Origin: a virus
Taxonomy: Duplodnaviria > Caudoviricetes
IMG/VR virus record: IMGVR_UViG_3300017903_000532
Coordinates: 1 to 32,402 of that record
Length of the DNA stretch: 32,402 bases
Direction: 5' to 3' (one strand)
The notes under the pieces are model-generated. The model was not told the DNA's origin and did no database searches. It saw only the letters and a program-made list of their open reading frames with translations. The translations under genes were made by a program, and so were the position numbers. Positions 10,302-19,424 of this stretch are shown here, piece by piece. The stretch's first letter is position 1. Every line of letters starts with the position of its first letter.

Positions 10302-10780
10302 TGGTTGATCCAATATCAGCTATGGCTATTGCAGGAGCGGCTTTTAATACACTTAAACGAGGCGTTTCTATTGGTCGTGATATTGAATCTATGGGAAAGG
10401 ATTTATCTCGTTGGATGTCAGCAGTGTCAGACATTGATAGAGCGAAAAAAAAAAAAAAAAATCCTCCAATATTTAAAAAAATATTTAATGCTAAAAGTGT
10501 AGAAGAAGAAGCAATCGAGTTATTTACACAAAAAAAACAATTACAAAATCAACGTGATGAGTTGCGTAAATTAATTAGTTCTATGTGTGGCCCTAATGCA
10601 TGGCAAGAATTATTAAAAATGGAAGCAGATATACGCAAGCAACGCAAAGAGACATTGTATGCACAACGAGAAGCACGAAGACAATTTGTAGAAATTGTAA
10701 GCATTTTCTTTTTAACTCTTACTATTGTTGGGTTTTTTATTTTTCTTTTATTTTTATGGCAAAGAAGGGGAACAATATGA
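10301..10780 (+). CDS. Coiled-coil protein with C-terminal transmembrane helix (lysis region)
   Basis: 159 aa, MVDPISA... start, charged coiled coil, hydrophobic C-terminus; contains an A17 run. Confidence 0.7.
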   Translation: MVDPISAMAIAGAAFNTLKRGVSIGRDIESMGKDLSRWMSAVSDIDRAKKKKKNPPIFKKIFNAKSVEEEAIELFTQKKQLQNQRDELRKLISSMCGPNAWQELLKMEADIRKQRKETLYAQREARRQFVEIVSIFFLTLTIVGFFIFLLFLWQRRGTI

Positions 10781-12660: not shown

Positions 12661-12742
12661 TATTTTTTTTCTCCATTAGTTTTTCAATATTATAATTTAT
12701 TCTTTTGAGTTCTGTAAGAATCTCTCTGAGTAAAGTAAGCAT
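12650..12742 (-). CDS. 30-aa peptide (not in ORF track)
   Basis: MLTLLREILTELKRINYNIEKLMEKKNNEQ; TAATG-coupled to the ERF stop and fills the gap to the SSB-like gene. Confidence 0.5.
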   Translation of the reverse strand: MLTLLREILTELKRINYNIEKLMEKKNNEQ

Positions 12743-13230
12743 TACCAATTTCCATCTTCTTCAACATGAGTTGGGCCTAATGCTTCAGCTAATGTTTGTA
12801 CTTTTGGTGATGGCTTTGATGCTTCATTACCATCATCATCTTCTGATGGCAGACCTAGCATTGATTGAAGACCGTATCGTTTTGCATAGGTAATACCGCT
12901 ACCCATTTTCTGTGGGTCTGTTGGGTCTTTGGATCGTATCAATACTCTTGATGAACGACTATCACCAGATGGTACATGTATGAGTGTTGTACGTACAAAA
13001 GTAATACCATTGCCTTCATGCCATTCAAAATCAATCTCTTGTGTAAAGCATATGCCAAACTCTTGTGCTTTTGAGGCGGCTTCAATAACTGCTTCCAAGC
13101 TTGCATAGTTGGATTTGAAGTGTGGATTTTTGCTATCTTTTTTTGCAGATACAGCAAGCTTTTGAAAGTGTAGCAATGCATTATTGAGCGAATTATTATT
13201 TGTTTTTGTTGTTTCTTTTTTAGTAGTCAT
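12742..13230 (-). CDS. erf: ERF-family ssDNA annealing recombinase
   Basis: K...NPHFKS.YASL, T.L.H.PSG and PQKMGSGITYAKRYGL...LG...EDDDGN signature. Confidence 0.92.
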   Translation of the reverse strand: MTTKKETTKTNNNSLNNALLHFQKLAVSAKKDSKNPHFKSNYASLEAVIEAASKAQEFGICFTQEIDFEWHEGNGITFVRTTLIHVPSGDSRSSRVLIRSKDPTDPQKMGSGITYAKRYGLQSMLGLPSEDDDGNEASKPSPKVQTLAEALGPTHVEEDGNW

Positions 13231-13245
13231 AAGGTTCTCCTATGT

Positions 13246-14022
13246 TTATTTTGTTGTAATGCGTAATGAGCCACGTTTATCACGCTTGATTGATAGTAGG
13301 TCGCAATATACTTCTCGTTCATTGTCTCCTACCATTTCCTTCAAGTAAGACTTAGCATTATTAAATGCTTCTGCTCCTTCTTGATATTGAATATAGTCAT
13401 GACATGCTGATATAAATTCATTGTCTCCTGTTGCATCTCTTCTGACCATATTGTTTACAGGTATTGTGTCTATTGATACAGGTAGTGGTGTTTGATACGG
13501 TTCTGTATCTTCAATTACATGTTGCCAAAACTGTTGTAGTTTTTGTTGCATTACTTTTAGATAATCTTCATCAAATGATATATGAGCGCAATCCCATTTT
13601 CTGTTACCAAATATAACAGATAACCAACATCCATTTGATTGAGCTAACCACATATAAAACTGCATTTGTGGCATATACTGACGCAAACAACTTTCCATAG
13701 TAGAGTGTTCGTTTGTATGTTTGCACTCTAGTACATCATTCTTTGTTGTTCTAACTATGGCATCGACAGTACCTTTGAGTGGTATGTCTTGCCATAGCAT
13801 TCTATATTCTTGTTGTTTATTTTTAATATCATGTAATAGATTGTAATTTTTTGAAAACCAATCAACATTAAACTGCTCTGTGTATGAGCCTAGTTGTACT
13901 GCGAGGTTATCAGATAAATCTTCTGGTTCTTTTCTACCAGTTTTGACTAGCCAAAGTTCATGCCAGTCTTTATTCATAATGACGTTCATATCTGAACCGC
14001 CAATAAATCCTTGTCTATTCAT
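13246..14022 (-). CDS. YqaJ/lambda-exonuclease-like recombination nuclease
   Basis: RQGFIGGSD, LW..KTG, G...E, TVD...LECK (PD-(D/E)xK) and Y.PQMQFYM motifs. Confidence 0.9.
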   Translation of the reverse strand: MNRQGFIGGSDMNVIMNKDWHELWLVKTGRKEPEDLSDNLAVQLGSYTEQFNVDWFSKNYNLLHDIKNKQQEYRMLWQDIPLKGTVDAIVRTTKNDVLECKHTNEHSTMESCLRQYMPQMQFYMWLAQSNGCWLSVIFGNRKWDCAHISFDEDYLKVMQQKLQQFWQHVIEDTEPYQTPLPVSIDTIPVNNMVRRDATGDNEFISACHDYIQYQEGAEAFNNAKSYLKEMVGDNEREVYCDLLSIKRDKRGSLRITTK

Positions 14023-15417: not shown

Positions 15418-15529
15418 GCTTTGCGCGATAATAGGTAGAGTCTCTTACACCAGCAGACACAAATGCCTTTTTGAGGTAGACATTTGCGTCTGCTGATTTT
15501 TTTTTTTTTTTTTTCATGTAACTATTCAT
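15341..15529 (-). CDS. Cro-like HTH protein, probably leaderless (62 aa)
   Basis: L..AF..AGV.DSTYYRAK.G.DLRYETA.KV resembles an HTH; ATG 15529 falls at the predicted +1 of the promoter; contains an 18-nt homopolymer. Confidence 0.65.
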   Translation of the reverse strand: MNSYMKKKKKKSADANVYLKKAFVSAGVRDSTYYRAKHGKDLRYETAQKVEKEIERLSKLST

Positions 15530-16941: not shown

Positions 16942-17781
16942 TTATCCTCCTATCGTTACCCAATCTGTGCGTGACAATGCTTTGGCAAAGTCTCTTTCTT
17001 TGTTAAGCGTTGTCACAATATTGTCGTTGTGTGTTACCCAATGTGTGAAGGCGTTGTATAAAGCCCATTTGGTTTTGCCAAGTGAAGCAGAATATTCCCA
17101 CCACTTTTGCATAAGTTCACTAACTCTTTTTTCATTGTATTTTTCAGTACCATTTGAACCATACTCTCTAAATGAAAATCTTCTGATAAACTCATACGCA
17201 TCTTCGTTATCAACCTTATGTTCTGTCCATTGTTTCCATAACTTACTTTCGTTAAAGAATGCAGTAAGACCTAGTTTCATTTGTCCAGTTGCATGAGATA
17301 AATTTATACCTAATGCATTACCTCTGGTGTGTTTGTATCTTGTCTTAGTAATAGTATCTGCTGTTGTCATACCATTCAAACAAAACAATCGTCTGCCTTT
17401 AGCTTCCTGTAAGAAAGCCCAGCTACCATCGTATGAATTGTAGAATAGTATTTCAAATCGTACATAGTCACCAACAGCAGGTTGAACTGTAAGGTCATCG
17501 AATATAATCTTGCCAAACATCTTTGCACCATTGTCAAATGTTTTGATATCAGTTGTGTAATCTTTTGATATGTCAGATTGATTGACAGCATCAAACATAC
17601 TATTCACAACGTCATCATGTAGAATGTATTCATACTTTGATCCATGTACACCAAGAGCTTCGTTAGTATCAGTTCGTACTAATGCTCTTGCCATAGTGCT
17701 GGGAATATTAATATCACCAGCATGTATATGTTTCATTTCAATTGGGAATGCATAGTCTTTTGTGATAGTCATGTCGTTCAT
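16942..17781 (-). CDS. DUF932-family protein
   Basis: R.DT...LGV.GS.Y...H, NSYDGS, R..C.NG and T.WALYNAFT motifs; start reassigned to ATG 17781 after AGGAGAACCA. Confidence 0.8.
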   Translation of the reverse strand: MNDMTITKDYAFPIEMKHIHAGDINIPSTMARALVRTDTNEALGVHGSKYEYILHDDVVNSMFDAVNQSDISKDYTTDIKTFDNGAKMFGKIIFDDLTVQPAVGDYVRFEILFYNSYDGSWAFLQEAKGRRLFCLNGMTTADTITKTRYKHTRGNALGINLSHATGQMKLGLTAFFNESKLWKQWTEHKVDNEDAYEFIRRFSFREYGSNGTEKYNEKRVSELMQKWWEYSASLGKTKWALYNAFTHWVTHNDNIVTTLNKERDFAKALSRTDWVTIGG

Positions 17782-17809
17782 TTGGTTCTCCTTTATGTTT
17801 GACTTTTTT

Positions 17810-17902
17810 TCACGCAAAGATAACTAGAATAGCAATCATTACCCCGAACAGCGTCAGCATGAAAGCTATTGCTGTTATCGCTTCAAGTATATTATGTATC
17901 AT
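17810..17902 (-). CDS. 30-aa single-TM peptide (not in ORF track)
   Basis: MIHNILEAITAIAFMLTLFGVMIAILVIFA; RBS GAAAGGA; first ORF after the promoter. Confidence 0.6.
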   Translation of the reverse strand: MIHNILEAITAIAFMLTLFGVMIAILVIFA

Positions 17903-17918: not shown

Positions 17919-17960
17919 ACTGCATATATGCAGTATGCCATATATTCGCACACTGTTCAA
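17919..17960 (-). promoter_or_regulatory. Early promoter with operator over -10/+1
   Basis: TTGAAC-N17-CATACT; ACTGC-N6-GCAGT at 17919-17934. Confidence 0.7.
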
Positions 17961-17964
17961 GCAT

Positions 17965-17998
17965 AAAAAAAGCTCAAGTGCCTTTGGCACTTGAGCTT
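17965..17998 (-). terminator. Intrinsic terminator after the 138-aa gene
   Basis: AAGCTCAAGTGCC-AAA-GGCACTTGAGC followed by T7 on the minus strand. Confidence 0.9.
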
Positions 17999-18008
17999 GA
18001 AGGCTGTG

Positions 18009-18425
18009 TTATACAGCCTTCAATTTCTTGCTTGTTGTAGTTGAGTATTTAGCTATGATGTTGTCCATCTGTTCAGCTTGCTTGTCAACTTCTGGAAACA
18101 ACTGTGTAAAAGCTTCTTGAAGATAAGCTTTGAAGTCTTCATTGATGGCAATCTGGTCTTTCTGCCATGCAATATCCTGCTCATTCTGCAAAAGCTTATC
18201 TTGATCAAGAAGCTCACCATGCTGTTGGTGTCTGTGAATCATGTCACCAGACTGTTCCTCAAGTTCAGCTATCTTCTTGTGCTTCATATCTGTATTGTAT
18301 CTGATACCTTGTATCATTCTGTCAATGTGATATTTGCACTGTGAATTGTGAGTCCTGTTTGACAAAGTGAAGCGACCAATAATATCCTGTGCGAAGCCGT
18401 TGATGTTTTGTGATTTCTTAGACAT
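18009..18425 (-). CDS. Coiled-coil hypothetical protein, first and monocistronic early gene
   Basis: 138 aa, AGGAGA RBS, own terminator. Confidence 0.75.
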   Translation of the reverse strand: MSKKSQNINGFAQDIIGRFTLSNRTHNSQCKYHIDRMIQGIRYNTDMKHKKIAELEEQSGDMIHRHQQHGELLDQDKLLQNEQDIAWQKDQIAINEDFKAYLQEAFTQLFPEVDKQAEQMDNIIAKYSTTTSKKLKAV

Positions 18426-18668
18426 TTGTTTCTCCTGTAATGTCAGTTATAGATAAGCTTGGCAGAACACGAATGGCGAGGGCTGTCTAGTCACGCTCGA
18501 CCGAGCGTCCTGCCATGCAGGTCGACTAGATGGGCATCGACAGTTGTGTTATGGTTTAGCGATTCTTAGCTGACTTGCAGGAGACACAAATGTCTGCTTA
18601 AGAAATCCAAAACAAATCAAAAGGCGGAGTACAGATATTATGGGGAGCGGAACTTTGTCAAACAGGAC
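18352..18668 (+). other. ~317-nt imperfect inverted repeat (rod hairpin with branched apex)
   Basis: 17-bp perfect base GTCCTGTTTGACAAAGT/ACTTTGTCAAACAGGAC, then continuous colinear helices to an apex with two small hairpins. Confidence 0.9.
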
Positions 18669-18697: not shown

Positions 18698-18930
18698 GAC
18701 TAGGAAATCAGGCGAAGAAATAAGATTTACATTTGCCACGACAAGCCATAGCTTGTCGCAAATTCTAGCAAATCTTATTTATTGCCTGACATATTTCCTA
18801 GTCCATGCGCGAACGGAGGGCGGGTCAAGCATGTTGCAAGGAAGACCCCTCGAAGGGTCAGCCTTGCAAATCCCCCCCTTTGAATTGTGACTTGACAAAC
18901 ATATTTCAACTGGTCCACAAAAGGGGGGGA
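18698..18930. other. Three further hairpins (18698-18803, 18834-18869, 18871-18930)
   Basis: GACTAGGAAAT/ATTTCCTAGTC with inner helices; TTGCAAGG/CCTTGCAA; TCCCCCCCTTT/AAAGGGGGGGA. Confidence 0.85.
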
Positions 18931-18960
18931 ACACAAGGGGGGGTTAAGAAAGGGTATTGT

Positions 18961-19338
18961 ATGAGTAACGTGGCAACGAAGCAATTAACCGCAAGACAGA
19001 CGAGGCTTGTTGATACTCTCGTAGCAAATGGATGCAGTGTGGCTGAAGCCTCTCGTCTTGCTGGTTATGCTTCTGGTGAAGCAGGGAGAGTGACAGCCAG
19101 TAAGACTTTGCGGTTGCCACATGTGCAAGCGTACATGATGCAAAGGATAGCTGAGACAATGGGTGTGTCTGCTACGGTTGCCTCTGCGAAGCTTGTGCAA
19201 CTTGCTCGTGGAGCCAAGAGTGAGTACGTGCAACTGGAAGCGAGTAAAGATATCCTAGACCGCGCAGGGTTCAAGGCTCCCGAGCGTCACATGCACATGC
19301 ACGCAGGAGACATAACCGTGCAGATTGACTTGACATAG
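18961..19338 (+). CDS. terS: Terminase small subunit
   Basis: Start ATG 18961. LT.RQ..LV....A...AGY...AS..LR.P.V..Y HTH and V.L.ASKDILDRAG oligomerisation motif; upstream of terL. Confidence 0.8.
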   Translation: MSNVATKQLTARQTRLVDTLVANGCSVAEASRLAGYASGEAGRVTASKTLRLPHVQAYMMQRIAETMGVSATVASAKLVQLARGAKSEYVQLEASKDILDRAGFKAPERHMHMHAGDITVQIDLT

Positions 19339-19424
19339 CGGTGGGGGGGTCAAAAACCCAACGTGTCAATAGTCAACACCACCCTCACTCTTATTTTTGC
19401 CACAAAGGTTCGTTATAAAAAACT

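Follow-up and report, generated by a model that had tools for sequence, protein, structure and literature searches.

A conserved, strand-specific DNA rod with predicted promoter anatomy upstream of the first leftward gene of Hodr-like marine podoviruses

Genes and features around the rod

The window analysed here is the whole 32,402-nucleotide (32.4-kb) stretch of IMG/VR record IMGVR_UViG_3300017903_000532, a marine podovirus record with a T7-like tail and internal virion proteins. Its nearest named phage was Pelagibacter phage EXVC031P Hodr (TerL 65%, capsid 55%), on which no paper was found in a search of the open-access literature. A family scan of the 42 proteins of this complete podovirus genome detected no DNA polymerase, primase, helicase, integrase, relaxase or T4SS family and no virion-type or phage RNA polymerase; two large internal virion proteins were without a family match. 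Host assignment via GTDB was discarded, the five matches being phage contigs inside unrelated MAGs.

The rod described below lies where a leftward early operon (gene 1, DUF932, HTH, resolvase, YqaJ exonuclease, Erf and HNH) diverges from the rightward gene of the terminase small subunit, terS (18961..19338, plus strand). Gene 1 (18009..18425, minus strand), which co-occurs with the rod, encodes 138 amino acids and is preceded by the RBS AGGAGA (18431..18436, minus). Since an intrinsic-terminator-like hairpin (17970..17998, minus) and then an ordinary duplex promoter-like site, TTGAAC-N17-CATACT (17932..17960, minus; read by eye), ahead of the remaining early operon, were found 3' of gene 1, it looks like a separate, monocistronic transcription unit. 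For the product of gene 1, structure prediction gave a long helical hairpin (pLDDT 88.5), and it could be assigned to no sequence family in PHROG, Pfam or PDB; the best ESM Atlas structure scored 0.76, Foldseek against PDB and BFVD gave no match at E 0.001, and VIA-align returned generic helical hairpins only (best Z 9.9).

An unlisted hydrophobic ORF of 30 aa with a leader hairpin (17810-17902, minus) was seen between the gene-1 terminator and the DUF932 gene (16942..17817, minus), the first large gene of the early operon. In the unrelated phages Gordonia Clawz (gene 1), Arthrobacter Beans (gene 72) and Roseobacter CRP-212, a DUF932 relative stands at the end of the record, a position that fits a first-to-enter role. 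Further along the operon, the YqaJ/RecE-like exonuclease and the Erf annealing protein (12742..14022, minus) could generate single-stranded 3' ends. Homopolymers of 17-18 bases occur twice, at 15497-15514 and 10445-10461, within or at the start of ORFs, and are either slippage sites or assembly error; the former is followed by a 28-nt stretch resembling the right arm of the rod.

On the other side of the rod, a duplex promoter-like site, TTGACA-N18-CACAAA, with two G runs (18892..18945, plus) precedes terS and is conserved in the clade. Across L001-L080 it reads TTGTGCGTTGACA-N18-[C/T/G]ATAAA, then G7-AACACAA-G7, in 53 distinct copies whose -10 is without -7T. A conserved G-run motif 3' of terS (19339..19412, plus) is a candidate packaging or terminus signal; most relatives have a G-run, TCAAAAA and a downstream motif there, and some have a hairpin inserted between terS and the motif. 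A second hairpin (18698..18803, either strand), which lacks strand asymmetry, is probably a separate element. Together with 18830-18870 it represents a class of branched hairpins without strand bias, located between the first gene and terS, that was also seen in relatives L005, L010, L020, L025, L029, L032, L060, L063, L071 and L076. This class occurs even in relatives without the gene-1 rod, several members bear a CAAATGTCTGC-like motif, and it is possibly an origin or a protein-binding cruciform.

Fold, strand choice and distribution of the rod

The plus strand at 18352..18668, which is the template of gene 1, is predicted to fold into an imperfect rod hairpin. Its left arm (18352..18492, plus) contains the template for the promoter, the 5' UTR, the RBS and the first 25 codons of gene 1. 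The branched apex (18493..18521, plus) consists of two small hairpins with loops GACC and CAT, and a GNA triloop is absent from it in the window genome. The right arm (18522..18668, plus) is a non-coding, mismatched copy of the sense strand and the predicted non-template strand in the fold; its copy of the RBS and ATG (18579..18601, plus) runs into a stop after three codons. The rod of 317 nt and both apex hairpins, first described by hand in an earlier note on this DNA, were recovered when 18352-18668 was folded. Both strands were folded as DNA and as RNA against shuffled controls, as that note had proposed, and in all four cases none of 100 shuffles folded as well. As DNA, the plus strand reached -94.0 kcal/mol (z -13.8) and the minus strand -75.6 (z -11.0); as RNA, the values were -164.2 and -129.1, respectively. 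No other such rod is present in the window, its self-complement score being 100 compared with at most 33 in every other part. The DNA fold of the plus strand had 127 pairs including seven G-T, and that of the minus strand had no G-T. The earlier count of about eight wobbles was thus one too high, and the claimed absence of A-C pairs on the plus strand held (0 of 19 symmetric mismatches). It had been overlooked that 17 of these 19 mismatches are purine-purine (14 of them G·A).

When gene 1 was used as query against IMG/VR, no locus was found. Loci were instead collected from the best 80 of 599 terS matches plus Hodr, fifteen with less than 700 nt upstream being dropped, and 67 regions (65 from IMG/VR, Hodr and the window) were scored. 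In this set, 43 of 67 regions had a self-complement score of at least 52, against at most 33 elsewhere in the window and at most 31 in downstream controls, and the rod-bearing regions formed 26 clusters at 85% identity. The rod was absent in Skadi-1 (HTVC010P type), MEP301, Vibrio D105, BcepC6B and SI2 (best scores at most 41). The rods extend 30-216 nt into the ORF and lie 0-430 nt from terS. The right arm matches the gene start of its own locus despite wide divergence of the genes; its copy of the ATG is lost in 8 of 26 rods and is otherwise followed by 2-83 codons, with at most six of the first ten residues matching.

The first leftward genes of the rod loci aligned as one divergent family, with 7-43% identity to the window's protein. 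Among 51 distinct loci, a complement over the gene start was present in 28 of 33 members of the gene-1 family compared with 4 of 18 other first genes (p 2e-5), and all 33 family loci folded better on the template strand. The four exceptions with a complement and another first gene (Hodr, L083, L085 and L086) may be distant members of the family; the relatives' alternative first genes belong to no informative family. The rods of L081 (Hodr), L085 and L086 are AT-rich and long (550-600 nt) and are broken mainly by bulges, not by G·T wobbles, and those of Hodr and L085/L086 show little or no G·T bias. The rod is a clade-wide cassette of Hodr-like marine podoviruses, placed between terS and the first leftward gene.

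The earlier proposal that folding favours the plus strand extends beyond the window, since the plus strand had the lower energy in 26 of 26 divergent clusters with DNA and RNA parameters alike. In a strand-neutral alignment, opposed bases on the plus strand were G·T in 264 cases against 53 A·C, G·A in 240 against 47 C·T, G·G in 88 against 13 C·C, and T·T in 85 against 51 A·A, and the excesses of G·T, G·A and G·G surpassed the expectation from composition. The plus strand thus collects the stable mismatch types, among which G·T and G·A are counted. The order G·G, T·T, A·A, C·C agrees with the stability measured for DNA mismatches, according to the available part of PMC3061078. Strand-biased deamination was rejected as the source of the wobbles because the transversion-type mismatches G·A and G·G, which cannot arise from it, are equally biased. 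An RBS-sequestering leader on the minus strand was likewise rejected, as the strand bias speaks against it.

Covariation was analysed in an alignment of a 10-sequence subfamily, and 19 of 76 main-stem pairs showed double changes, above all 500 shuffles and all slid controls, in keeping with the earlier idea that the fold is under selection; since this alignment had itself supplied the structure and 12 apex or short pairs of the 88 predicted were left out, this result is supportive and does not amount to a probability. A close relative differed from the window at 19 of 152 positions in the part of gene 1 beyond the rod and at 1 of 317 within the rod, the latter change turning a G·T into an A-T. 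For a second relative the differences were 15 of 149 outside and 4 of 317 inside; low variation extends past the rod. One contig of low depth carried two pair-breaking changes (18576 and 18578). In one contig of run X20, the T·C mismatch of 18430 and 18585 was replaced by A·G through a change on both sides, giving a stabler mismatch type.

Since the same mismatch order is valid for RNA, it fixes the strand and not the molecule. The loops at the apex bear on the molecule. In the apex zones (3,466 bases), C(GNA)G triloops occurred nine times on the plus strand and once on the minus strand, compared with seven and ten times, respectively, in 119,038 flanking bases, that is 34 times more DNA; UUCG was found 0 times and a GNRA tetraloop once. 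In an enlarged set of 89 family loci, 11 of 34 clusters had such triloops on the plus strand, on seven different stems, and one on the minus strand. These GNA-type loops cap branch hairpins far above the start site. As far as the accessible portions of PMC3201870 and PMC13037366 go, C(GNA)G-type loops confer exceptional stability in DNA, and a related tetraloop fragment is much weaker as RNA. The loop type argues for DNA over RNA as the acting molecule.

We consider it decidedly unlikely that a plus-strand transcript over the rod acts as a structured non-coding or antisense RNA, or as a 6S-like decoy, that regulates gene 1. Such an RNA would agree with the better folding of the plus strand under RNA parameters in all 26 clusters and with the stability of G·U and tandem G·A in RNA as well, and a plus-strand TTGACA-N18-TATCCT exists at 18359-18388, though within the left arm. 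However, the apex loops are of the DNA triloop type and not UUCG or GNRA, and in an RNA rod there would be no role for a -35 sequence that is paired and lies 16-18 nt from a hexamer resembling -10. Moreover, an Rfam search of the window returned one weak match (E 0.053), which lies outside the rod, and a terminator-like site is absent at the right end of the rod.

Predicted promoter elements in the window and in related rods

All the promoter elements that had been picked out by hand were located in the window and are in register. On the sense strand of gene 1, a -35-like TAGACA (18484..18489, minus) is paired in the fold, with two G-T wobbles, and the duplex -10 position is occupied by the non-consensus TCTGCC (18461..18466, minus), without -11A and -7T. 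The right arm carries TAGATG-N17-TATGGT with TG at -15/-14 (18527..18555, plus), which provides -11A and -7T in the fold. Thus the sense strand, TAGACA-N17-TCTGCC, and the right arm, TAGATG-N17-TATGGT, each have one good and one poor box when linear, and the fold would join the template of the better -35 with the better -10. The template base facing -11A was unpaired (P 0.00), and the predicted transcription start (18454..18456, minus) falls in an unpaired bubble, its three positions being mostly unpaired (P 0.29, 0.16 and 0.06). Best scores in the window were 1.9-6.0 for the duplex promoter and 4.2-8.1 for the fold promoter, the range being set by the matrix.

The promoter anatomy of subfamily 1 was examined in 17 sequences. 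A sense-strand TTG is fixed 77-83 nt upstream of the ATG and is paired; pairing was at least 0.94 at -38 to -32, 0.16-0.70 at -11 to -6 and 0.18-0.48 at +1 to +4. In several rods, often in this subfamily, a branch hairpin that stacks on the main stem makes up the rest of the -35. On the right arm, a conserved hexamer of the [C/T]A[T/G/C] type lies 6-7 nt ahead of the copy of the 5' UTR hairpin. According to a script whose register was wrong in four cases, -11A is on the right arm in 13 and on the sense strand in six. A linear TTG -35 was found in two right arms by the script, and four right arms have a -35 of their own when read by eye.

The register of -35 and -10 described earlier for the window was conserved in subfamily 1, whereas over all 26 rods the test was not significant with E. 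coli weights (fold versus duplex 15 versus 11, p 0.31; fold versus right arm alone 13 versus 11). A further set of -10 weights was derived from 53 terS promoters of this clade; these promoters do not depend on the rods and likewise lack -7T. According to the available part of PMC7703639, a missing -7T is common in alphaproteobacterial promoters. With the clade-derived weights the fold was favoured over the mirror arrangement in 17 rods to 8 (p 6e-4) and over the duplex in 16 to 9 (p 0.01), all p-values being overstated since the rods are kin. With three positions only, the fold prevailed over the mirror by 10 to 4 and over the duplex by 14 to 2, the rest being ties. In 9 of the 26 rods the duplex promoter outscored the fold promoter with the clade-trained weights.

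Naive best-promoter scoring of the rods gave no clear signal, and an 'alpha-relaxed' matrix (p 0.04) was discounted as it had been tuned after the data were seen. An RpoH-type reading of CCTATC motifs was excluded by eye, the spacing being 26 nt. In subfamily 2 (L043, L058, L065 and L067) no clear -35 can be made out, and a CATAAG on the sense strand reaches an equal or better score; L013 has a plausible duplex promoter. The right arms of L002, L003, L018, L114, L035 and Hodr each contain both boxes and might act as rightward promoters in the duplex.

Proposed function, alternatives and related systems

What sequence comparison shows is a strand-biased fold that has been conserved and goes with the gene-1 family. 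As for its function, we find it moderately probable that the rod is a fold-dependent, Frpo-like sigma70 promoter acting on single-stranded plus-strand DNA. The plus strand, once freed from its partner, would fold back on itself, and the right arm would provide a -10, which gene 1 probably lacks in the duplex. Transcription of gene 1 by the sigma70 RNA polymerase of the host would presumably follow. Pairing over the RBS and the first 10-70 codons would provide a non-template strand that frees the 5' end of the mRNA for ribosomes, and the stopped or shifted copy of the ATG would bar protein synthesis from the right arm. The gene-1 transcript may also prime re-synthesis of the lost strand.

We know of no single-stranded entry stage in tailed phages. 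The single strand would most likely come from 5'-to-3' resection, by host enzymes or the phage exonuclease, of a genome end to the right of the rod near terS. Since such an end would lie to the right, this resection would leave exactly the plus strand as a 3' tail; the polarity suits a 3' tail at the right-hand end, and genes for an exonuclease and Erf are present. Phage exonuclease and annealing proteins act on injected ends, as described in the available part of PMC12407980. Given the promoter reading, resection as the trigger is a guess to which we assign a little less than an even chance; replication intermediates are a further possible source of single strands. Adjacency to terS, the conserved G-run motifs and a clustering of contig ends led us to infer a genome end near terS. 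Contig ends within 350 nt of terS numbered 10 of 42 upstream (p 0.007) and 6 of 24 downstream (p 0.03), a clustering that falls short of proof of a terminus because assemblies also converge on terS, where short contigs are numerous. The accessible portions of PMC10504331 and PMC7111524 gave no terminus for the window's clade.

Together with the resection trigger, the most speculative suggestion is that gene 1 counters host end-processing or a response to ssDNA. We regard it as rather doubtful that the rod is, in full, an independently evolved ssDNA promoter that works as a tripwire near the genome end, fired only when nuclease resection of the incoming DNA exposes the 3' strand, the phage thereby sensing that its end is being processed and making a counter-protein of a new family.

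The rod sits between divergent transcription units and could also be extruded as a cruciform from supercoiled duplex between the early and terS promoters, gene 1 then reporting supercoiling or circularisation. By a rough estimate for a 32.5-kb circle, extrusion would cost about 261 kcal/mol against a release of about 215 at sigma -0.06 and 293 at -0.08, so that the cost exceeds the release at ordinary supercoiling but not at the stronger value. In a cruciform both strands must fold, yet the minus strand gathers the weakest mismatches. There is a precedent in phage N4, whose early hairpin promoters, as far as described in the available part of PMC13037366, resemble the rod as hairpins of template-strand DNA with GNA-capped loops (in 11 of 34 clusters) and a role as phage early promoters (predicted in the present case). 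In N4 the stem has 5 bp and the loop three bases, and the phage virion RNA polymerase reads these hairpins (PMC13037366, same portion), whereas the rods measure 250-600 nt and have sigma70-type boxes, the apex in the window lacks a GNA loop, and no virion-type or other phage RNA polymerase was detected among the 42 proteins. We judge cruciform extrusion decidedly unlikely.

It is very unlikely that the rod is mainly a single-strand origin, at which a primer made by host RNA polymerase or primase would convert a displaced or resected plus strand, the overlap with gene 1 being secondary. The rod does resemble the G4 origin and RSF1010 ssiA, which are strand-specific hairpins with mini-hairpin loops and can start RNA primers on ssDNA. 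The ssoA-type origins of rolling-circle plasmids share this likeness. In favour of an origin, no DNA polymerase, primase or helicase was detected in the genome; Frpo transcripts prime complementary synthesis (available part of 10.64898/2026.01.09.698686), and mini-hairpins occur at phage ssDNA origins (available part of PMC13037366). However, unlike single-strand origins, the rod is tied to one gene family and its translation start, whose RBS and start codon it covers, and not to a replicon, and no rolling-circle initiator or primase was detected in the window. Furthermore, 14 of 18 loci with another first gene have no complement, with the same terS and layout, and an origin that is essential would not be expected to appear and disappear along with a single gene.

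Although the rods lie 0-430 nt from terS and contig ends cluster there, it is highly improbable that the rod serves packaging, end protection or protein binding close to the genome end, or that it is an inverted duplication which arises again and again and does not act as a promoter, in view of the ordered mismatch types, the position of the bubble, the compensatory changes and the low variation, of the relatives without gene 1 that use the same terS for packaging without a rod, and of the G-run motifs as better terminus candidates.

The single-strand promoter reading places the rod beside the Frpo/ssi promoters of conjugative plasmids (PMC9849209, PMC12672017, PMC11541004 and 10.64898/2026.01.09.698686, each in its available part). 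Like these, the rod is an imperfect stem-loop of great length, formed by the template strand immediately before a gene, its fold is predicted to rebuild -35 and -10 for host RNA polymerase, and it lies in what may be the first DNA to enter, followed by a DUF932 gene. Unlike them, it resides in a tailed dsDNA phage and not in the leading region of a conjugatively transferred T-strand, it is present in one copy with one monocistronic gene, the RBS and 30-216 nt of coding sequence lie within its stem, many rods build the -35 across a branched junction, and the -10 is often without -7T. No match to the rod was found by blastn among 72,556 plasmids at E up to 1, and no homology to Frpo/ssi class 1-3. 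No report of an ssDNA promoter for host polymerase in a tailed dsDNA phage was found in the titles and abstract openings of the open-access literature.

We regard the rod as a real, conserved, strand-specific DNA structure whose predicted fold has promoter anatomy, in an unexpected host element. Sigma70 promoters active only on ssDNA have so far been shown on conjugative plasmids, which enter as ssDNA. If the promoter reading is true, tailed phages with dsDNA would possess a conserved ssDNA promoter unrelated in sequence to those of plasmids, and their genome would have to adopt a single-stranded or extruded state, so far unrecognised, by which genes are controlled. Gene 1 would represent a new protein family, and its timing hints at a function during entry. 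What happens early on to the ends of phage genomes, including resection, circularisation and host end-processing, would then become directly testable; Hodr, a cultured Pelagibacter phage, bears the rod.
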